DNA from: a virus
Taxonomy: Duplodnaviria > Caudoviricetes
Reading direction: 5' to 3' (one strand)
Virus record (IMG/VR): IMGVR_UViG_3300038345_000144
Length of the DNA: 64,000 bases
The position numbers were made by a program, and so were the translations under genes. The notes beneath the pieces are model-generated. The model was not told where the DNA came from, searched no databases, and saw nothing but the letters and a program-made list of their open reading frames with translations. Positions 1 to 59,872 of the stretch are shown here, piece after piece. Position 1 is the stretch's first letter, and each line of letters starts with the position of its first letter.

Positions 1-17
1 GAAGCGGATGCAAACAT
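1..17 (-). CDS. 5' end of a gene running off the window
   Basis: ATG at 17 preceded by AAAGGAG; upstream TTGACC-N18-TATAAT promoter. Confidence 0.5.
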
Positions 18-113
18 AACTTTTTTATCTCCTTTCGTGATATTGTTTATATTATATTCAAAGAAAATATCGTTGGTCAATAGTGTGGTGACGATTTTTT
101 GTAAAATTTGAGT

Positions 114-178
114 ATGACCAAATAAATGACTAAATAATGACCCAATAAATGACCCAATAAAATTTATGATGATGACCT
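114..178. repeat. Phased ATGAC(C/T) direct repeats
   Basis: Copies at 114, 126, 137, 149, 172. Confidence 0.8.
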
Positions 179-639
179 TAAAATAAGCAATCATAATAAA
201 TAATAAAGGCAATAGTTAGTAGGAGGGCAAATAGGGATAAATAAAGAATATATATTATTGAATAGTGTGACATATTGTACTTTTTATTCCAAAAACAGGT
301 TTAACGATACTTTTTTTAACAAATCGTCAGTTTTAGTATCGTTAACGGCACTTTTACGCAGTTTCAAACAGATTTTCTGTTCAAATCTGATTTTCACTAT
401 AATCAGGAGTTTCAATACATCGTTAAAACGGTCAATTTTAGTGAAAGTTTAGTTAAAGAATAAAATATAACACCACCGTGTTATAGTAGACATTTTGAGG
501 GTAAAATAGGCACATATCACCGACATTTTGAGGGTACACTACATTACTCCACATTACGCTAAATGGTAATGTAAGGTAATGATTTAGCGTAGTATAAAAA
601 TACCGCTTGCTTTTTACTCTTTAGTGTATATAATCTAAA

Positions 640-732
640 TATGCTTATAGCACTCCTTCAAGCAAGGTATGTTTTTAGCAAGTTAGGTTGTTATTGGAAG
701 ACACTGCTTTGCAGAGTGGTGTCTTTTCTTTT
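640..732 (+). ncRNA. Putative small RNA A
   Basis: TTGCTT(607)-N16-TATAAT(629) promoter; terminator stem 698-725 with G-U pairs on + strand, then TTCTTTT; contains CACTCCTT; no SD-led ORF. Confidence 0.5.
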
Positions 733-737
733 GCAAA

Positions 738-929
738 TAAAAACCCCCGTATGTACGGGGAAAATTCATAAACATTTAGTCACCGAATTCCCAATTTCGA
801 GAAACCTCCGATAACGGAGAAGAGCAACACTGCAATTGCAAGCGTATATAGTGAGTGAAAAACCTCCGTACACGGAGAAAAGGGACCCAGAAATCAAGAA
901 GATAAGAAAAACCTCCACAACTGGAGAAC
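738..929 (-). CRISPR. Cas-less type I-E-like mini-array 1 (4 degenerate repeats, 3 spacers)
   Basis: Repeats start on + strand at 738, 799, 857, 906; minus-strand consensus TT-CTCCN-loop-NGGAG-GTTT(T/C)TC; unique spacers. Confidence 0.75.
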
Positions 930-935
930 AATAGA

Positions 936-1163
936 TTAGCCGTTAAGTTCAGCCCACTTTGCCATCATTTCGTCCCTGCGACCATCTGGATAGTTTGATG
1001 TTCCATAATAGAGATTGCCGTCAGCGTCACGATTATCAACTGTTGCTACGACAACATCTGCCTGCAACTTACTGCCATTCTCATTGGGCTTATATGTAGC
1101 ACATCCAATCGCACCTAAAGCAACGATGATAAGGATAATGATTGATATGATTGCCTTCTTCAT
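936..1163 (-). CDS. Small lipoprotein
   Basis: MKK, hydrophobic stretch, lipobox-like AIGC; SD AGAGGAG. Confidence 0.75.
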   Translation of the reverse strand: MKKAIISIIILIIVALGAIGCATYKPNENGSKLQADVVVATVDNRDADGNLYYGTSNYPDGRRDEMMAKWAELNG

Positions 1164-1432
1164 TTTAAGTTCTCCTCTGTGTGGTAAAAGCCTTTATTTT
1201 CAAGGACTTTAGCCTGTATTTTTCTCTCAAATGTAAGCAAATCATAGCATCTTTTTCTGGTGATGTAAATAGCAAAAACGGCTTTTTTTGCATTTGTAAT
1301 ATTACAATTTTATGTAGTTGTGGTTGCCCTGTTTTGACACCCCAATATATAGTGGTTGAGTGGTAAAAATGCCCTGAATTCAACTTCGTCATTCAACTGT
1401 TTAACTGCATCATTTGGGGCAAAATGACTAAA

Positions 1433-1521
1433 TTAAATAACCCCTGCTCACCCGCTTAATAGTGAACAGAGGTTATTAGGAAAGAGGTAATTATTCTATA
1501 TTATGAATAATCGAATAATAT
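1433..1521 (-). ncRNA. Putative small RNA B
   Basis: TTTACA(1556)-N17-TAGAAT(1533); terminator-like stem 1436-1477 with U-G pairs on minus strand; contains ACCUCUUUCCU. Confidence 0.5.
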
Positions 1522-1566
1522 ACTCCTATTCTACACTTGTAAACAGCATTTGTAAAGTAAAAATGA

Positions 1567-1646
1567 TAAAAACCCTGTCTATGACTACGACTTCATAAAC
1601 AGGGCGAAAGTAAGGAAAAAAGTTATGAATAATGAATAAGATATAT
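1567..1646 (-). ncRNA. Putative small RNA C (its terminator may also end the array 2 transcript)
   Basis: TATAAT at 1653-1658 with weak -35; CCCTGT...ACAGGG-TTTTT terminator; complementary to AAGTAAGGA-N8-ATG. Confidence 0.45.
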
Positions 1647-1700
1647 GCCTCTATTATAAGTGCTTTTTCTTAAAATGGAATAGGCAATTACAGACATATT

Positions 1701-1961
1701 AACAATCTCCGTACACGGAGAACTGGAGCAATAGCCTTGAAAAGAGTGCTCTTGCCGACTGAAAAACCTCCTATACAGGAGAAACATACATATACCTTAA
1801 TGGTCTTATTCAGAACGCTGGAAAAACCTCCAAACTGGAGAATAAACCCGAAGTCACTGACCACATATTTAGAGTCTTGAAAAACCCCCATAACGAGGAA
1901 CCATTGTTAATCCAACAACTGACCGTGTTGTTCTTGAGAAACCTCACAAGGCTGTGAGAAT
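1701..1961 (-). CRISPR. Cas-less type I-E-like mini-array 2 (5 degenerate repeats, 4 spacers)
   Basis: Repeats at 1701, 1761, 1821, 1879, 1936 (period 57-60 nt); same consensus as array 1; trailer repeat at 1701 has a degenerate handle. Confidence 0.8.
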
Positions 1962-2021
1962 GTTCTGATGAAATTCAAAACAATCAATGTTCATCTATCA
2001 TTATTAAATAGCCGTTAATAG

Positions 2022-2047
2022 AAAAGAGGCACTTGTGTACCTCTTTT
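2022..2047 (-). terminator. Intrinsic terminator (possibly bidirectional)
   Basis: AAAAGAGG...CCTCTTTT hairpin after the stop at 2050. Confidence 0.7.
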
Positions 2048-2049
2048 GA

Positions 2050-2205
2050 TTACTTCTGATTGGCTTTGAGTCCCTTTATCTCTTCTTCAAGTTCCTTGAT
2101 GATACCTACATAGTATTTCCACTGCCAGTGTACGATACATAAAGCGGCGATGCCCTCGATGGTCATTAAGATTAAAAATACATCACCAATATTAAGTTCT
2201 GTCAT
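2050..2205 (-). CDS. 51-aa membrane/coiled-coil peptide (not in ORF track)
   Basis: AGGAGG SD; MTELNIGDVFLILMTIEGIAALCIVHWQW... Confidence 0.65.
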   Translation of the reverse strand: MTELNIGDVFLILMTIEGIAALCIVHWQWKYYVGIIKELEEEIKGLKANQK

Positions 2206-2218
2206 TGTTTTTTCCTCC

Positions 2219-2758
2219 TTATGATAAGTTATACTTGGCTAACAACTTCTTCAGTTCGTTTTCTCTGCTCTTGAGTTCTGACTTCTCCCACTTGAGATTA
2301 CTCTTTGCTGTCTGTAAATCCTGTTCAGCCTTTTCTACATTCTTCTTCGTTCTGGCAATACGCTCTCTAACACGCAGGATTTCCTCGTACTTATAGAGAG
2401 TGGGCTTGTAGTCCTCGTCAGGCTCGCTGTAATTACGCTCTGGTGTGTCAAGGTAATTAGCAAAGTCAAACTTCGTAGGCTCGCCTACACGCTCATTAAC
2501 GAAGCCACGGAACGAACCCATTAAAGAAAACAGCGTCGGGTCATTCGGGTAGGGACAAGCATACAGATACTTGTGTGTCTTACGGCTCTCAACACAATAT
2601 AACCATAATACCTCGTCATCAAACGGTACAGGATGTATCTTGGTGTGTCCGATAATATAACCGCACTTTCTTACTACCTTAAATGCAGGGGTCTCATCTA
2701 TCTTGTCCTCTGTAAAAGGTGTTGTAATTACCTCAAAAATTGCCTCATTGATTGTCAT
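2219..2758 (-). CDS. Hypothetical protein with C-terminal coiled coil
   Basis: AAGGAGG SD; own promoter at 2791-2819. Confidence 0.75.
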   Translation of the reverse strand: MTINEAIFEVITTPFTEDKIDETPAFKVVRKCGYIIGHTKIHPVPFDDEVLWLYCVESRKTHKYLYACPYPNDPTLFSLMGSFRGFVNERVGEPTKFDFANYLDTPERNYSEPDEDYKPTLYKYEEILRVRERIARTKKNVEKAEQDLQTAKSNLKWEKSELKSRENELKKLLAKYNLS

Positions 2759-2790
2759 TTTTAGTGTCCTCCTTGACTGTTTGTGGCTTC

Positions 2791-2819
2791 AGTGTAGCAA
2801 CCCTAAAATCGCTTGTAAA
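2791..2819 (-). promoter_or_regulatory. Sigma-A-type promoter
   Basis: TTTACA-N17-TACACT. Confidence 0.7.
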
Positions 2820-2925
2820 GGGCAAAATACCCCTATACCTAAACCCTGTTAGTAAATCGTTGAAATTCGTTCTGGACTAACAAAATATTTGTATGGAATT
2901 CCCATCTGGACCCTTAAAAAATGAC

Positions 2926-3020
2926 AAAAGAAAAGAGGTGCTTCTTCAGCACCCCTTTCTCTATAATGGAGGTATTCGTGAATAAATATTCACAAATCGT
3001 AGGGTCGTTCACTCCCTACA
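2926..3020 (-). ncRNA. Putative small RNA D
   Basis: Extended -10 TGTTATAAT (hexamer 3027-3032); two hairpins, unpaired ACCUCC, terminator 2929-2960 with U-tract. Confidence 0.55.
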
Positions 3021-3037
3021 TATATGATTATAACACA

Positions 3038-3099
3038 TTTAACTCGTTTTTAACTCATCATTTAACTCGTTTTTAACTCAATCACTTCCATTTTAATTC
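3038..3099. repeat. Phased TTTAACTC repeats
   Basis: Copies at 3038, 3049, 3061, 3072; variant at 3092. Confidence 0.8.
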
Positions 3100-3119
3100 G
3101 CTCATCGAATTAAACAGCA

Positions 3120-3518
3120 TTACTCCTTGCAATAGTCTTGAAAGGTAATAGCGTGGTCTATGGTCAATAGGTAGGTAGCGTTTCTTTGTAATGTAGCCAT
3201 CTCCTCATAAAGGTACTGGTGCAATAGTTTCTTTGCTAACTCGTCATTTCGTTCCACCAATACTACTTCATCATTTTCTGGTTCCTCAAAATTAACCCTT
3301 AATGTAGAGATTGTAGGGTTGTTTTCAAAGTTTTTATTAACTATATGAACGGTCTTTCCCAAAGATACAGCATTATATATATCTGTGGGCATCTGCTCAA
3401 ATTTAGCATACCAACACTCTACAATAAAAAGGTGCTTGAGAGCATAAAGGTATCGGTAACAGGTTTGATTGTGTTCCTTTGCTACCTCGGTTACAATGTC
3501 ACCATACGATTTACTCAT
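3120..3518 (-). CDS. Hypothetical protein, paralog of 7928-8386
   Basis: Shared YG..V.EVAK.HNQ.CY and D.LAKK motifs; start adjusted to the SD. Confidence 0.7.
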   Translation of the reverse strand: MSKSYGDIVTEVAKEHNQTCYRYLYALKHLFIVECWYAKFEQMPTDIYNAVSLGKTVHIVNKNFENNPTISTLRVNFEEPENDEVVLVERNDELAKKLLHQYLYEEMATLQRNATYLLTIDHAITFQDYCKE

Positions 3519-3538
3519 AATCATTACTTCCTTTCTAA

Positions 3539-3655
3539 TAAAAAACTCCCCCACCCAAATCAACTAAAATTAGGTGAGGGAGTTCAATTAAGTTGTTATA
3601 TCAATGATAACTTATCCTCGGAGGTGTTGTAAATATGCAAAAAACATTTATTACC
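3539..3655 (-). ncRNA. Putative small RNA E or attenuator leader
   Basis: TATAAT at 3661-3666; contains CACCUCC (complement of GGAGGTG-N8-ATG); terminator 3544-3584 plus U-tract. Confidence 0.45.
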
Positions 3656-3769
3656 ACCGTATTATACTTTTTTAGTATCATACAACTGGATTATTAAAGG
3701 GTATTAAATGAAGAAAGTGCCTACCCGAATGGATAAGCACTCTCTTGTAGAAAGGAGATAATAGGTCAA

Positions 3770-4912
3770 TTAGATAACTGGATAATCTTTTGCTTCCTGC
3801 TTGGTCATAAAGAAATGAATTCCTGTTGAACATTCATTCCATCGGTTCGTATTAAAGTCGGGTTCACCAAACGCCAAACTTTTAACGGTTTTTCCAACAG
3901 TATAGATAAAGGTATCGTTATACCAAGCCCTAACCTTAATATCAGCAGGCAATTTGTTATCATTCATATCATAGAACCCAAGCACCTTAACAGCACTGGC
4001 TCTGCATTTTCTTCCCGTACCCGAACTTCTCTTGGCATTGGCGGGAATTTGAAGTTTAACTAATACTCCCTCTTTAGTGTGGCTATCCTTAACCCAGATT
4101 GCTTTTTTCCAAGCGACAAAAGCACCCTCTTCAGGACATATCATATGGTACTTAATATTAGTAACATTGTCTCCAATGCAAGCATTATCAAAGTTAGCAT
4201 CTTCCATATGTCCACAATCTATGTCAGCAAAAAACGCTTTAGTTAAGTTAGCACTGAAGAATTGTGAGGAAGTGATTATTGTCTTTCTAAATTGTGCTTC
4301 ACTTAAATTTGCCTCTATAAAATGACAACTTTTTAGGTTAGCATAATTAAAGACCGCCTTACTGCAATTAGCCTGATAGAATGAACAACATTCAAACACG
4401 GTCTGTTCCCGTGAAGAAATAAAGCAATCTATTGACATCATATTTGCCCCGCTAAATTTGACATCAAAAAGGTGGCATCCCCAAAATTTGGTAAAACCAC
4501 AAAAAGCATAGTTGAATTCACACAACCATATTTTAGTGGCTTCAAAGTGAGCGTCTGTAAATATAGCATATTTGAATATACACTTGTTAATCACACATTC
4601 TTCAAATGACGCACAGGTAAACATACAGCCATAAAACCAGCAAGAGTCATTAAAAACTGTCTGAACAAATCTTGCTTTATTAAAAATTACCTGGTCAAGT
4701 TTACAGTGAATAAATTTACAGTTCTCAAACAAACTGTAACTTAAATCTCGATAGTCTCTAAAATCAATATGCTCAAACACTTGATTTTTGAATGTGGCTC
4801 TTTTACCACCTTTTTCGTTATTCAACCACTTCTTATGGTTTTTAAGCACGGTGGCTAATGATTTCTTATCAATCGTTATATCTTCTGGTATATAATAAAA
4901 ATCATCACTCAT
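3770..4912 (-). CDS. Pentapeptide-repeat protein with C-terminal DUF5758-like domain
   Basis: A(N/D)(L/F)xx repeats; CPEEG.F..WKK...LQIPANAKRS...KCRAS...ECSTGIHFF. Confidence 0.85.
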   Translation of the reverse strand: MSDDFYYIPEDITIDKKSLATVLKNHKKWLNNEKGGKRATFKNQVFEHIDFRDYRDLSYSLFENCKFIHCKLDQVIFNKARFVQTVFNDSCWFYGCMFTCASFEECVINKCIFKYAIFTDAHFEATKIWLCEFNYAFCGFTKFWGCHLFDVKFSGANMMSIDCFISSREQTVFECCSFYQANCSKAVFNYANLKSCHFIEANLSEAQFRKTIITSSQFFSANLTKAFFADIDCGHMEDANFDNACIGDNVTNIKYHMICPEEGAFVAWKKAIWVKDSHTKEGVLVKLQIPANAKRSSGTGRKCRASAVKVLGFYDMNDNKLPADIKVRAWYNDTFIYTVGKTVKSLAFGEPDFNTNRWNECSTGIHFFMTKQEAKDYPVI

Positions 4913-5295
4913 TCTTCTTCTCCTTCCTCAAATACGGATTTCCATTCATCACCACAACCAACATAAGCCTTGAATACAACTCTAAAGCCTGCTTCAAGAT
5001 ACTTTTCGGTGATATATTCCATTGTTTTTAGTACATCTTGTGCCTGAACCTTTGCGAGACCAATGTTTCTTTCATCAACAGTTTCAAAAGTGTACCAACC
5101 AGCGTTTTTATCATCATAATTAACTTCATAGAGAATAGGCTCAAGGCTCTTTATTCTCTTCAGTTCGTCGCATACTTTAGTATATTCTTCACACAACTGG
5201 GTTACTGCCTGTTTTAATTCTGTAAAGCCAGTATCGTTGTCTGACTTGTCCTGTTCTTTTTTTCTTATTTCGGCTAAAATGGTGGCTACTCCCAT
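4909..5295 (-). CDS. Hypothetical protein
   Basis: SD; promoter TTTACA-N18-TATGAT at 5326-5355. Confidence 0.7.
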   Translation of the reverse strand: MGVATILAEIRKKEQDKSDNDTGFTELKQAVTQLCEEYTKVCDELKRIKSLEPILYEVNYDDKNAGWYTFETVDERNIGLAKVQAQDVLKTMEYITEKYLEAGFRVVFKAYVGCGDEWKSVFEEGEEE

Positions 5296-5417
5296 AAAAG
5301 TTCTCCTTTTTGTAATAATATCATTATCATACCAGTATATTTATAAACTTGTAAATAGCGAAAATAAAAATCCCACTACCTAATATAAGATAGCGGGATT
5401 TATTAAAGCGTATATTA

Positions 5418-6398
5418 TTACTCCTTTTTCGGAGGTCGGTCTATTCTCAAACCACATTCAGGGCAAAATTTCAAATCCTTAATGATACGAACAAGGCTTT
5501 TAGGAACTTTCCAGCCACAAGCAAAACACTGTAAGCCACCGTCTTCTTGTTCTATCAATTCCGTCTTTGGCTCGTTATTCATACGATTGTGCTTAATTAC
5601 CGAGCATACCGTAACGGTTCCACCTCGTAACTGGAAACCATATACATCTCGTATATCCCCACAAGAGCATTTACAACGCCACATATCAAAATGCCTGCCG
5701 TTTTCCATTGTCTTATCATCAATTTGCTGGATAACCGTTAACTCGCCATAGGTCTGTCCTACAAAGGTTTTATTTACGAGTCTTGGGTGGCGATTAGTAA
5801 AATAATCAGGGTGATTTCCTTTATTGCCACAATATGTAATTATAGTATCGTTAGGGTGGGTTAAATAACCCAGACTCTTTTGACAGGTATTACCACAGGA
5901 ACACTTACAATTCCATCGTTTTGTTTTCTCGTCAAAATCAAGAACCGTAAGTTCTCCAACCTTCAAACCTGATAAATTGTAACGAGGTTTTCTTTTTGCT
6001 ATATTACAGCACTTAACACACCCCGTAGACTGTCCTTTGAGTAGATTGTGATAAACTATATCACCCTCATTACCGCACTCACATTTACAGTGGCACATTC
6101 TGTATAATTGAGACTTATATTGTTTATCCCACATATACTGAACCGTCCACTTACCAAACTTCTTGCCCGTAAGGTCTTCAGCCTTTTTACGGGACTTTAT
6201 GCCCATACAGTCGTTACAGCCAGTTTTCTTACCTTCCACCAATAACTGTGTGTTGACAATTACCTCATTACCACAATCACACACGCAACGCCATTTAGAC
6301 GGAACCTGCTTGTTATTGGCTCGGCTACTTGGTATAAACTCGATAGGCGTAAGTTTACCAAATTTCTCATTTCTTAAATCTCTTTGAATTCTTCCCAT
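5418..6398 (-). CDS. Protein with four tandem Cys-rich Zn-binding modules and a C-terminal Zn ribbon
   Basis: 4x (F/Y/V)G.(L/W)T...C.C.CG modules of the kind found in phage HNH/AP2 proteins; CFACG...CPECG tail. Confidence 0.75.
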   Translation of the reverse strand: MGRIQRDLRNEKFGKLTPIEFIPSSRANNKQVPSKWRCVCDCGNEVIVNTQLLVEGKKTGCNDCMGIKSRKKAEDLTGKKFGKWTVQYMWDKQYKSQLYRMCHCKCECGNEGDIVYHNLLKGQSTGCVKCCNIAKRKPRYNLSGLKVGELTVLDFDEKTKRWNCKCSCGNTCQKSLGYLTHPNDTIITYCGNKGNHPDYFTNRHPRLVNKTFVGQTYGELTVIQQIDDKTMENGRHFDMWRCKCSCGDIRDVYGFQLRGGTVTVCSVIKHNRMNNEPKTELIEQEDGGLQCFACGWKVPKSLVRIIKDLKFCPECGLRIDRPPKKE

Positions 6399-40813: not shown

Positions 40814-41926
40814 TTACTCCTGTACGGTTGTTTTGTTATCCGAAGTATAAATCTTTTCAAATGGCAGTCTCTTAATAGCAACATCACCAGTCTTGGTCAT
40901 AATCAAGCCGTCTGTATAGTTGGTATGTGTAACCAAGATATGAGGCTCAAGATTAGGGCAATCAGCCTTAATACGCTTAACCAAATCATCAACAGAGTCA
41001 AATCTGCCATAACGAATAGACTCCTGCCACTGGTTGTGAACATTTGTTTCGTCGATAGGACCGTAGAATGTGTCCTCAACGAAATTACCTCTGCCGTGTC
41101 GTGTAAGATAAGGGCGAGTTACATAGATAGCCTCGTCCAGTGTCTTACCATACTTCTTCAGACAGGCATTTACATTATAAAGACCTGTCTTGGACGGAGT
41201 TCCGTGAACCATATCAAAGTCTCCGTCAATAAGTAATCCCTGACCGTTCTCAAAGATGATGTTATCATACTTATCAAAGAGTTCGCCCAAATCAACGATA
41301 CGCACCTTTTCGACATTGTTCTTAATCTCTACTACATAGTTAAAGATTGTAGCACTGTCCAAGAGCATATCCTTATACATACTATCGCTGTTGCGATACT
41401 TCTGGGCATACTTTAACAACTTTGGAATACTATACTTTTGTCTGATGTCTTTCAAAAGGAAGAACAATTGTTCTATTGAGAGTTTCTGAACCTGCTCTAT
41501 GGTAACGCCAAAACCAGCGTTATTACGGTATACGCACTCCCAAATACCCATACCACAACTTCCTGCTTTGTCCTGTGTTTCCTTAAAGCAATTAAGAAAA
41601 ACATCGTCAATCAGTGTGATTTTAGTATTTTTGTCACAAAAGATTACTGGTGCTATCCCAGTGAGTTTCTGGAAGTCTCCGTATTCTTTACCAAGAGTGT
41701 ATAGGTCAGGGTGATATGTGTCTGCCCAATAGGTATCAGCACCGTTGAAAGAGCCAGAGGATAATTCGTGAAATACGAACTTCTTGTCTCCGATTTCAAC
41801 AGTATGCCCTGATTGAGCACCGCCATTATGTCTGATTACTAAATTCTTTCCCTCTTGGCTAAAGTGGTTTACGGCAAGTCCTTTACCTTCATCACCGAAA
41901 TTAGCACCAATAATCGCCTTTATCAT
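40814..41926 (-). CDS. purA: Divergent adenylosuccinate synthetase-like protein
   Basis: GANFGDEGKG, RHNGGAQSGHT, FENGQGLLID, TPSKTG, YLTRHGRG. Confidence 0.8.
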   Translation of the reverse strand: MIKAIIGANFGDEGKGLAVNHFSQEGKNLVIRHNGGAQSGHTVEIGDKKFVFHELSSGSFNGADTYWADTYHPDLYTLGKEYGDFQKLTGIAPVIFCDKNTKITLIDDVFLNCFKETQDKAGSCGMGIWECVYRNNAGFGVTIEQVQKLSIEQLFFLLKDIRQKYSIPKLLKYAQKYRNSDSMYKDMLLDSATIFNYVVEIKNNVEKVRIVDLGELFDKYDNIIFENGQGLLIDGDFDMVHGTPSKTGLYNVNACLKKYGKTLDEAIYVTRPYLTRHGRGNFVEDTFYGPIDETNVHNQWQESIRYGRFDSVDDLVKRIKADCPNLEPHILVTHTNYTDGLIMTKTGDVAIKRLPFEKIYTSDNKTTVQE

Positions 41927-58741: not shown

Positions 58742-59872
58742 TCAAGTTCCATATTTCAAGGCTTCTTCATAGGTTATGAAGAAATGAATACCGCTTGCAC
58801 ATTCTTTCCAACGGTTTGTTTCAAATTTTTCAGAACACTTTGTAATTTTACCTACAACATACTGGGTATCAGTAGCAGGTGACTTAAAAAGTGGGAAGGC
58901 AACGGTGTCTGCGGGGTACTTTCTTCCGTTAAGGTACTGAATTTCCAAAACCTTTACCTTATCAGCACGGCACTTTCTACTTGTAGCAGAACTTCTCTTG
59001 GCGGTTTCTGGAATTTCAAGTTTAATGATACAATCCCTCTCTTTACCGTCTTTGTTGATTACTCTTCCCTTCTTCCACCCGATGAATGAGCCGTTTGAAG
59101 GACACGCCATTGGACACGGAACATTAGTACAGTCGGATATTTTAGCCGAGGTTCCAAATAAAGAAAGACCCGTAGCATTAGTAAAATCAACATCAATAAA
59201 TTTTGTATTTGATAAAACGGCATTGTCAAATTGAGATTTTGGGACATCTATTTTAAGTCCGTCAAACATACTGCCTATAAGTATTGAATTGTTAAAAGCA
59301 CACATACCAATGCTTGCATTAAGAAAAGTTGACTTTGTTAATGTTGCTCCTTCAAAATAATCACTGAATAAAGATGTGTTTATAACTACCATTTGATGTA
59401 AATTAGCACCCTTAAAACCACAATAATTAAGTTTAGAGAACTTAAAGGTCGCACACTGACCATTACACATCTTAAATGAACAGGAAGCAATTGACCCCTG
59501 GTTAAATTCTGTAAAACGCAAGTCGGCATAATCAAAGTTGTCCTGACTTAATGAAGAATGATTAAACATAGCCCCGTACATATTAGCGTACTTAAAGTCC
59601 GTAGCGGCAATTGTAGCCCAGTTAAAATTAGCACTAACCAACTTTGCGTGATTAAACACACAATGGTCAATATTTGCGAACTGAAAATTAGCCTTATTTA
59701 ATTGGCAATCACTAAAGTCGATAAATTTAAGGGTTTGGTATGATAAATCAGCCTGCTTACCCTGTTCCCCATTAGTTTTAAGCCAAAGGGCGTGTTCCTT
59801 GATAATGTTTGATAGTTTTTCTCCGTTAATACGCACCTTATTAGGCTTCTGCATAGGCTCCATATCCATCAT
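58742..59872 (-). CDS. Pentapeptide-repeat protein with DUF5758-like C-terminus, paralog of 3770-4912
   Basis: EHALWL...GKQADLS; CPSNGSFIGWKK...KLEIPETAKRSSATSRKCRA...ECASGIHFF. Confidence 0.85.
   Translation of the reverse strand: MMDMEPMQKPNKVRINGEKLSNIIKEHALWLKTNGEQGKQADLSYQTLKFIDFSDCQLNKANFQFANIDHCVFNHAKLVSANFNWATIAATDFKYANMYGAMFNHSSLSQDNFDYADLRFTEFNQGSIASCSFKMCNGQCATFKFSKLNYCGFKGANLHQMVVINTSLFSDYFEGATLTKSTFLNASIGMCAFNNSILIGSMFDGLKIDVPKSQFDNAVLSNTKFIDVDFTNATGLSLFGTSAKISDCTNVPCPMACPSNGSFIGWKKGRVINKDGKERDCIIKLEIPETAKRSSATSRKCRADKVKVLEIQYLNGRKYPADTVAFPLFKSPATDTQYVVGKITKCSEKFETNRWKECASGIHFFITYEEALKYGT

Follow-up and report, generated by a model that had tools for sequence, protein, structure and literature searches.

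The 64,000-nucleotide (nt) stretch of viral DNA analysed here (IMG/VR record IMGVR_UViG_3300038345_000144, Duplodnaviria; Caudoviricetes; hereafter, the window) carries two arrays of hairpin repeats at positions 738–1963, which resemble the CRISPR repeats of type I-E systems. The arrays are a confirmed feature of the sequence, and are best interpreted, with a probability of roughly 80%, as the remote arrays of a type I-E CRISPR-associated (Cas) system that is encoded by the phage itself and is used against the genes of other genetic elements. This interpretation is supported by the anatomy of the repeat units, the covariation of their stems, their RNA orientation, the presence of cas genes in the same genome, the link between this type of repeat and cas6e in related phages, and the conservation of the spacers.

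According to this interpretation, the arrays would be transcribed on the minus strand along with the surrounding genes and operons, and the phage Cas6e would bind each short hairpin and cut at its 3' base. The product would be a CRISPR RNA (crRNA) of approximately 55–60 nt, formed by a 7-nt 5' handle (GUUUUUC or GUUUCUC), a spacer of approximately 32–35 nt, and the hairpin at the 3' end. These crRNAs would be loaded into the phage Cascade (Cse1, Cse2, Cas7, Cas5, and Cas6e), which would recruit the phage Cas3 to matching DNA. The crRNAs would be aimed at genes that encode proteins in other elements, of which competing phages are the most likely, with the arrays serving inter-phage competition.

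The divergence of the repeats may be understood in the same terms. Given that no Cas1 or Cas2 is seen near the operon, no new repeats would be made, and the set of guides would be inherited; with the copying step lost, the repeats would diverge, while retaining what the proteins need: the handle, a stem with a CUCC/GGAG base, and complementarity between the two arms above it. The first-pass annotation of the window, which was made from the sequence alone, had regarded the arrays as selected, recombination-resistant cassettes. Plain drift following the loss of the adaptation genes fits the data at least as well as selection for recombination resistance, and selection against recombination between the repeats may add to the divergence.

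Anatomy and covariation of the arrays

The nine hairpin units described in the first-pass annotation are all present, each with its flanks. On the minus strand, a unit consists of TT, a hairpin of 5–6 base pairs (bp), and the handle, which appears on the plus strand as GAAAAAC or GAGAAAC, followed by the stem of 5–6 bp with a loop of 3–6 nt, and then AA. This organization had been proposed previously, including the degenerate handles of the trailer units, and can be seen in the readings of the individual units. The 25–28 nt of the unit comprise a 5-nt flank, a hairpin of 13–16 nt, and the 7-nt handle, and the units recur with a period of approximately 60 nt (57–61), except for a single interval of 49. 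When the two strands of the whole window were scanned for the hairpin with its flanks, the motif was confined to positions 745–1958, apart from three unrelated single hits.

When the 5-nt 5' flank is counted within the repeat, as modelled on the canonical 28-nt repeat of a related locus (L300), the spacers measure 32, 33, 34, and 35 nt in array 2, and 23, 32, and 33 nt in array 1. The distances between each handle and the next hairpin, which had been given as 37, 38, 39, 40, 37, 38, and 28 nt, were recounted as 36, 38, 39, and 39 nt in array 2, and 28, 37, and 38 nt in array 1, so that the 28-nt outlier stands and some of the other values shift. The last unit of array 2 is also present, although at a corrected position.

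The geometry is that of a type I-E system, as had been claimed, with a 7-nt 5' handle, a spacer of approximately 33 nt, and a 3' hairpin. Two features of type I-E arrays are found in the window, that is, a repeat with a stable hairpin followed by a handle (25–28 nt in the window, compared with the 28–29 nt of the type), and spacers of a uniform length of approximately 32–33 nt, with the exception of one short and two long spacers. This length is also the most typical of the wider array family, in which 26 of the 37 spacers have 32–33 nt. Near-identical repeats, a further feature of type I-E arrays, are absent from the window, where the only hairpin present twice among the nine units is CUCCG-UGUA-CGGAG, the number of different hairpins being given as seven. 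An A+T-rich leader is also lacking, and no minus-strand promoter-like site is found ahead of either array. Tandem-repeat software is blind to these arrays because every repeat has changed in sequence, while the hairpin and the 7-nt handle have been kept; the silence of Tandem Repeats Finder at both arrays fits the earlier expectation that repeat finders would miss them. The Rfam and tRNA scans of the window returned no match.

The orientation of the RNA is supported by several lines of evidence. The full pairing of the 1879 unit requires two G-U pairs, as had been noticed, and these pairs are possible only in minus-strand RNA; the direction of the genes, the cas genes, and the end units all agree with this orientation. 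It is in the two terminal units that the handle deviates from the consensus, with one change at 738–744 and a sequence that is not recognisable as a handle at 1700–1706. The last unit of an array in a related locus (L299 11725–11750) also has no handle, and the first handle of an array in the related complete genome G001 has no preceding hairpin. These end units, that is, a hairpin without a handle and a handle without a hairpin, indicate that the functional unit runs from a handle through a spacer to a hairpin, as in a type I crRNA. Past the last spacer of array 2, no handle is required. Array 1 begins 4 nt past the stop codon of the open reading frame (ORF) at 936–1163, with which it is probably co-transcribed, and its terminal unit, which is terminator-like because of its stronger stem and U run, probably doubles as a transcription terminator.

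A covariance model based on 13 units recovers all the window units except the G-U-rich 1879 unit, that is, eight of the nine. Seven of these have E values of 1e-9 to 3e-3, and the 1936 unit is a weak match, at 0.39. The best match in the window outside 738–1963 has an E value of 0.37. The pairing of the stems was assessed in 28 distinct units from the window, G001, the loci L299, L302, and L300, and a bacterial array. Standard pairs were found in 96.4% of the pair cells, and changes on both sides in four of the five stem pairs (20 cells), values that were reached in none of 500 shuffles, so that the compensatory nature of the stem changes, which had been read from the window units, is upheld. 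The signal is lost when the partner is slid by 1–3 columns. The three basal pairs are almost fixed (one is invariant and two are changed in just one or two units), and the variation is concentrated in the pair adjacent to the loop, and is less pronounced in its neighbour. The pair counts were taken from an alignment that was fitted to the structure of the model, which should be kept in mind when reading them; a MAFFT alignment failed to place the loop gaps. The features of the two arrays are listed in Table 1.

Table 1. Repeats and spacers of the two arrays, in the order of the minus-strand RNA, and the ORF upstream of array 1 (positions in the window)
Feature	Position	Strand	Description
Array 1 repeat 1	906..931	-	5-nt flank, CUCCA-GUUG-UGGAG, GUUUUUC; covariance model 34.0 bits, E 2e-8
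Array 1 spacer 1	883..905	-	23 nt; the sole short spacer
Array 1 repeat 2	857..882	-	CUCCG-UGUA-CGGAG, GUUUUUC; covariance model 37.6 bits, top match
Array 1 spacer 2	825..856	-	32 nt
Array 1 repeat 3	799..824	-	CUCCG-UUAU-CGGAG, GUUUCUC; covariance model match
Array 1 spacer 3	766..798	-	33 nt; 11-nt core common to G001 spacer L305 3239-3270
Array 1 terminal repeat	738..765	-	6-bp G+C-rich stem CCCCGU/ACGGGG, then U run; 19.3 bits
Array 2 repeat 1	1936..1963	-	CUCACA-GCCU-UGUGAG, GUUUCUC; most divergent stem; 13.9 bits, weak
Array 2 spacer 1	1904..1935	-	32 nt
Array 2 repeat 2	1879..1903	-	CCUCG-UUA-UGGGG, two G-U pairs, GUUUUUC
Array 2 spacer 2	1846..1878	-	33 nt
Array 2 repeat 3	1821..1845	-	CUCCA-GUU-UGGAG, GUUUUUC; covariance model match
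Array 2 spacer 3	1787..1820	-	34 nt; 20-nt core common to spacers of relatives
Array 2 repeat 4	1761..1786	-	CUCCU-GUAU-AGGAG, GUUUUUC; covariance model match
Array 2 spacer 4	1726..1760	-	35 nt
Array 2 terminal repeat	1700..1725	-	Hairpin CUCCG-UGUA-CGGAG at 1707-1720, handle not recognisable; 28 bits
75-aa ORF	936..1163	-	Directly upstream of array 1; signal-peptide or lipoprotein-like N-terminus, as read from the sequence only

Cas genes, related phages, and the surrounding genome

The window, which has 37.7% G+C and nearly all of its genes on the minus strand, comes from a large phage genome. Among its products are an NAD-dependent ligase, a helicase, an HNH endonuclease, and a PurZ-like enzyme, and a megablast search of positions 1–6000 against INPHARED recovered no match. 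No cas gene is found within the 64 kb, as had been stated. The conclusion that the arrays are Cas-less, and would borrow a host Cas6e and Cascade, was nevertheless not supported when cas genes were looked for in the rest of the genome. A Cas7e protein (P0055, 432 aa) shares all of its 103 short words with a stretch of the same genome that lies 75,733 nt past the end of the window. The contig on which P0055 is encoded (L297) serves as a proxy for this region, and has a 7.0-kb operon with Cse1, Cse2, Cas7, Cas5, Cas6e, and an 800-aa Cas3, each with a Pfam match, in the order cse1-cse2-cas7-cas5-cas6e-cas3. The Cas3 has both HD and helicase domains, according to Pfam, and the Cas6e resembles the Cse3 of T. 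fusca (5u07_A, E 1.2e-8) at the level of the sequence, including the C-terminal glycine-rich loop. The cas genes of the window's genome were thus recovered through a word match in the case of Cas7e, and through the proxy contig in that of the operon. No cas1 is found within 10 kb of the L297 operon.

Two further observations were made on this contig. The 60-nt gap between cas6e and cas3 (L297 12431–12490) contains two repeat-like hairpins, which end just ahead of the start of cas3, and may provide Cas6e-dependent control of this gene. Just upstream of the operon, a 635-aa gene (L297 5865–7772) has Pfam matches to radical-SAM (faint), intein-splicing, and LAGLIDADG (faint) domains, and may be a gene interrupted by an intein.

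A pattern scan of IMG/VR recovered the same kind of array in G001, a complete phage genome of 467 kb, where the Pfam match to Cas7e lies 1.2 kb upstream of the array. In this locus, the genes encoding Cse1, Cse2, Cas7e, Cas5, and Cas6e are followed by an array of six units (L296 11914–12218), which abuts cas6e, and by a Cas2-Cas3 fusion, all on one strand. As the handle-sense strand of this array is the cas strand, the orientation of the RNA is fixed. The stems differ in each unit (UUCCAU, UUCCU, UCUCAU, CUCCU, and CUCCAA), while the handle is GUUUUUC in every unit except the terminal one. The covariance-model search of a related genome, which had been recommended, was productive: it recovered further arrays in G001 near 18, 20, 22, 36, 37, 39, 55, and 433 kb, all on the cas strand. 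The Cas7e of G001 has 63 homologues, with 48–98% identity, on contigs of up to 532 kb, and the nearest bacterial Cas7e proteins are only 22–26% identical to that of the phage.

Other relatives present variations on this organization. In L299, a one-spacer array is found between cas6e and cas3, and an array of nine units, in which all the hairpins differ, save one that is present twice, is located past cas3 and ends in a terminator. Arrays of six units with unlike repeats are also found past cas3 in L302 and L303. By contrast, L300 encodes both Cas2-3 and Cas1, and has an array of at least 20 identical repeats of 28 nt (L300 11996–12023), with a period of 61. The layout of this repeat is that of the window units, with a 5-nt flank, a stem of 5 bp, a loop of 6 nt, and the handle GUUAUUC. 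The comparison of L300 with the other loci thus indicates that identical repeats accompany cas1, and unlike repeats its absence. One array of G001 (L305 247–515) has repeats that have diverged only slightly, which fits an intermediate stage of drift.

No Cas1 was found in the complete G001 genome. The Cas3 of this phage (L296 12272–14983), like that of L299 (8500–11214), has an N-terminal Cas2 domain of the I-E type, and the fusion in the Cas1-less G001 looks like what is left of an adaptation module that has been lost. The 800-aa Cas3 of the window lineage has no Cas2 domain.

A bacterial counterpart was found in a metagenome-assembled genome (MAG) of Ca. Avisuccinivibrio stercorigallinarum, which contains a true CRISPR array with a 28-nt repeat that is almost equal to the window consensus, and a period of 61. 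This is the sole true CRISPR array with a window-like repeat among 185,579 species genomes. It is split across two contig ends (L232 1–330 and L220 7020–7236), flanked by pseudaminic-acid and flagellar genes. Cas1, Cas6e, Cas6f, and Cas7e were not found in this MAG, which may itself be incomplete, and its spacers had no match among the sequences compared in this analysis. The array may point to the host lineage or to the origin of the system, but proves neither.

A number of other observations refer to the genome around the arrays. The contig SRR1725612_2579, from an independent assembly, is identical to the window over the arrays, and begins at window position 799, inside array 1, so that the arrays may assemble poorly or vary within the population. 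In a related-strain contig, an array of three repeats is found approximately 21 kb past the end of the window, and in a related strain (L336 1–3495), approximately 25 kb past this end, an SF2 helicase and three genes of approximately 300 aa lie beside an array locus. The region between the two arrays (1164–1700) has three promoter-like sites and a strong 13-bp terminator (1572–1605), all on the minus strand, and no convincing ORF, and may encode small RNAs. Two paralogues of approximately 380 aa, with pentapeptide repeats and a DUF5758 domain, are encoded on the minus strand at 3770–4912 and 58742–59872, and an additional tandem copy of this gene is present in the related strains L291 and L293. 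The 370-aa protein encoded at 40814–41926 (minus strand) matches a PHROG family annotated as PurZ-type adenylosuccinate synthetase (E 5e-42), and the phage DNA may contain 2-aminoadenine in place of adenine, which, if true, bears on how the phage's own DNA escapes nucleases.

Spacers, possible targets, and alternative explanations

The spacer at 1787–1820 has a 20-nt core that is identical to spacers of three related loci (L299 11459–11490, L305 458–489, and L296 12158–12190), the last two of which belong to G001. Relative to the repeats, this core has the opposite orientation in the window to that in L299 and G001, which excludes the inheritance of the array and indicates that a single target was either sampled independently or favoured by selection. 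All five variable sites of a 21-nt core occupy the third codon positions of a single frame, which translates as (E)YL(N/K)GLI(Q/H), and this pattern of variation indicates that the target is a protein-coding gene. Two other pairs of spacers are common to G001 and L299.

A degenerate scan of IMG/VR recovered one in-frame match, which falls in the portal gene carried by a T4-like contig of 65 kb (G100), and when all the spacers were compared with this contig at the peptide level, the portal motif alone was found. The corresponding motif, KAE(E/Q)Y(I/L)(K/R)GLIQRY, is strongly conserved in 120 portal homologues (Pfam Portal_T4). On the basis of these sequence comparisons, it is tentatively suggested that the 1787–1820 spacer family may target the T4-type portal gene of competing phages. 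G001 itself has no portal gene of this type. A 23-nt metagenome match in an rlmN-like gene, read through its translation, was rejected, since the frame puts a stop codon in one of the spacer variants.

A number of points weigh against the interpretation of the arrays as the guides of a phage-encoded type I-E system. The 23-, 34-, and 35-nt spacers fall outside the 32–33 nt that best fit a six-Cas7 backbone. The whole array 2 RNA folds no better than shuffles (z -0.68, compared with a moderate -3.2 for array 1). The 5-bp stems and U runs are also called terminator-like by a consensus scan, which recovered nine such sites in 500–2400, where 1.0 would be expected, seven of them being array units. 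The portal likeness spans eight residues and was detected with a pattern that derives from these same spacers, while none of the 120 portal homologues has an N where the peptide varies; as the scan returned approximately the number of matches expected by chance, and the pattern came from the spacers, the portal assignment should be treated as a lead rather than a result. The protospacers with a consistent protospacer-adjacent motif (PAM), which the first-pass annotation had anticipated as a check, did not materialize: neither an exact protospacer nor a PAM was recovered from the INPHARED phages (queried with both window arrays and the L300 array), from IMG/VR and the JGI metagenomes (queried with the shared 20-mer and its degenerate versions), or from 98 Succinivibrionaceae genomes, where the arrays had only chance-level matches. 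The cas operon of the window's genome is represented by the word match and the proxy contig, and the absence of cas1 refers to the complete G001 and to the 10 kb around the L297 operon. Transcription and the cutting of the hairpins are predicted, rather than observed, steps, as are the loading of the crRNAs, the identity of the target, and its cleavage.

The lack of exact protospacers is compatible with partial matching, and is one of the reasons for considering that the crRNAs might be made and loaded, but act mainly as regulators, which repress partly matching sites in the phage or its host without cleavage. Many cas loci, including those of type I-E, are known to have regulatory mini-arrays that resemble repeats (10.1101/2023.03.03.530964), and the cas6e-cas3 gap of L297 contains two repeat-like hairpins. 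This role is nonetheless improbable, given that the Cas3 has Pfam matches to both HD and helicase domains, and that the complete G001 genome contains no self-match, even partial, of the shared spacer family. In addition, no spacer of the window has a match in the window, in the 60 kb of neighbouring loci, or in any of the loci compared, and the tracking of third codon positions suggests full-length matching to a coding gene.

A slightly less probable reading, close to that of the first-pass annotation, is that the units are guide cassettes that depend on the Cas6e and Cascade of a type I-E host, in the manner of the mini-arrays of archaeal viruses. The window itself has no cas genes, the Ca. 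Avisuccinivibrio repeat is near the window consensus, so that compatible bacteria may exist, and the use of host Cas proteins by viral mini-arrays has been documented (PMC11656645). However, a complete interference module is encoded by the phage itself, and the same type of repeat abuts the phage cas6e in relatives. Known mini-arrays have the repeats of the host (PMC11656645), while those of the window are unlike each other, the bacterial Cas7e proteins are remote from that of the phage, and none of cas1, cas6e, cas6f, and cas7e was found in the Ca. Avisuccinivibrio MAG.

It is highly unlikely that the units are RNA anti-CRISPR decoys, which mimic repeats and sequester the host's Cas6e or the subunits of its Cascade, a role that had also been proposed from the sequence and was not supported here. 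Phage repeat mimics of this type (Racr) do exist, with no cas genes nearby (PMC10651486), and the window units retain exactly those parts that are bound by Cas6e and Cas5. Against this, decoys need no spacer of fixed length, whereas most of the family's spacers have 32–33 nt, and the spacers are conserved between distant phages with variation of the coding type. Rather than solitary units without a functional spacer, the window has arrayed units, and the spacers between them are defined in length and conserved in content. A cas operon is present in the phage genome, the phage Cascade would be the first to be poisoned, the array abuts cas6e in G001, and the phage is not known to have a host with an I-E system.

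Least probable of all is the interpretation of the hairpins as a tandem series of intrinsic terminators or attenuators that act on the genes upstream, with no link to CRISPR. In favour of this reading, the stem of each unit is short, contains G+C, and leads into five U on the coding strand, the consensus scan picks up seven of the nine units, and 738–765 looks like a real terminator. Against it, the period of approximately 60 nt is regular, the conservation extends past the U run to the final C of the handle and to the TT ahead of the stem, the layout is identical to that of the canonical repeat of the cas1-bearing L300, the arrays adjoin cas6e in relatives, the spacers are common to different phages, and 5-bp stems make weak terminators, with only 738–765 having a strong stem at the end of a unit. 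Two other candidates were rejected, that is, a repeated peptide code, given that the periods are not multiples of three, and a plus-strand reading of the Cas12a type, which is contradicted by the cas genes, the direction of the genes, the G-U pairs, and the end units.

The interpretation of the arrays as part of a phage-encoded type I-E system may be extended to the whole clade of huge phages, although this broader proposal is tentative, and its probability is considered to be somewhat below even. In this case, a type I-E system that was once adaptive would have become inherited and innate-like in this clade, with fixed guides distributed over a dozen operon-embedded mini-arrays, repeats that have been driven apart, but retain the Cas6e hairpin and the handle, and are thus recombination-resistant and hidden from repeat-based detection, and spacers selected across lineages, on both strands, against the most conserved core-gene motifs of rivals.

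Significance and comparison with known systems

These arrays show how far repeats can diverge and yet, very probably, still serve a single Cas6e and Cascade. They thus represent a natural map of the needs of type I-E processing and loading: the handle, the four base pairs with which the stem begins, and complementarity beyond these. Surveys based on repeat identity would undercount the arrays of phages, and many phage cas operons that appear to be “array-less” may have remote arrays. The relatives with and without cas1 constitute a natural experiment on the uniformity of repeats, and non-repetitive natural arrays may be used as templates for stable multiplexed guide arrays. If it is true that the spacers hit core genes of rival phages, the arrays would be a hard-wired weapon in the competition between phages.

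The closest reference is the canonical type I-E system of E. coli, T. fusca, and T. thermophilus, which has the same gene set (cse1, cse2, cas7, cas5, cas6e, and cas3) and the same repeat layout, with a 5-nt flank, a hairpin, and a handle of 7–8 nt. The relative L300, with its 28-nt repeat, 33-nt spacer, and period of 61, conforms to this type, and the phage Cas6e matches the solved Cse3 structures by sequence. The window arrays differ from the canonical system in that the repeats all differ, with stems of 5–6 bp rather than 6–7, and in that the arrays are short (3–4 spacers), leaderless, embedded in operons, and located tens to hundreds of kb from the cas genes. In addition, no cas1 or cas2 is seen, and the Cas7e has only 22–26% identity with its bacterial counterparts.

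Huge phages have been reported to carry CRISPR-Cas systems without adaptation genes and with compact arrays (Al-Shayeb et al. 2020, PMC7162821; PMC11656645). The systems described in PMC7162821 share with the present one their occurrence in very large phages (here, on contigs of up to 532 kb), the presence of interference genes without Cas1 or Cas2, the short arrays, and the proposed use against competing phages or host genes. Their arrays, by contrast, lie beside the effectors and have repeats similar to those of the host, and the part of that study consulted describes no type I-E system with dispersed arrays of non-identical, co-varying repeats, and no lineage-conserved spacers. Neither a phage type I-E system with such arrays nor lineage-conserved guides were found in the literature consulted, the coverage of which was incomplete.

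The mini-arrays of viruses (PMC11656645) are also short arrays in a viral genome, located away from cas genes, with spacers that are thought to be anti-viral, but they contain no more than two spacers, their repeats match the host's exactly, and the virus encodes no Cas proteins, whereas the present phage has its own Cascade and Cas3. The RNA anti-CRISPRs (PMC10651486) are similar in being repeat-derived hairpin-plus-handle elements of phage genomes, although they are single units, have no functional spacer, and act against the system of the host. The regulatory mini-arrays and the atypical repeats of cas loci and CRISPR-associated transposons (10.1101/2023.03.03.530964; PMC11656645) share with the window arrays the diverged repeats that can be used by the effector and the inherited guides, but they consist of single units with one target, beside the cas genes, whereas the present system has many remote arrays, each with multiple guides.

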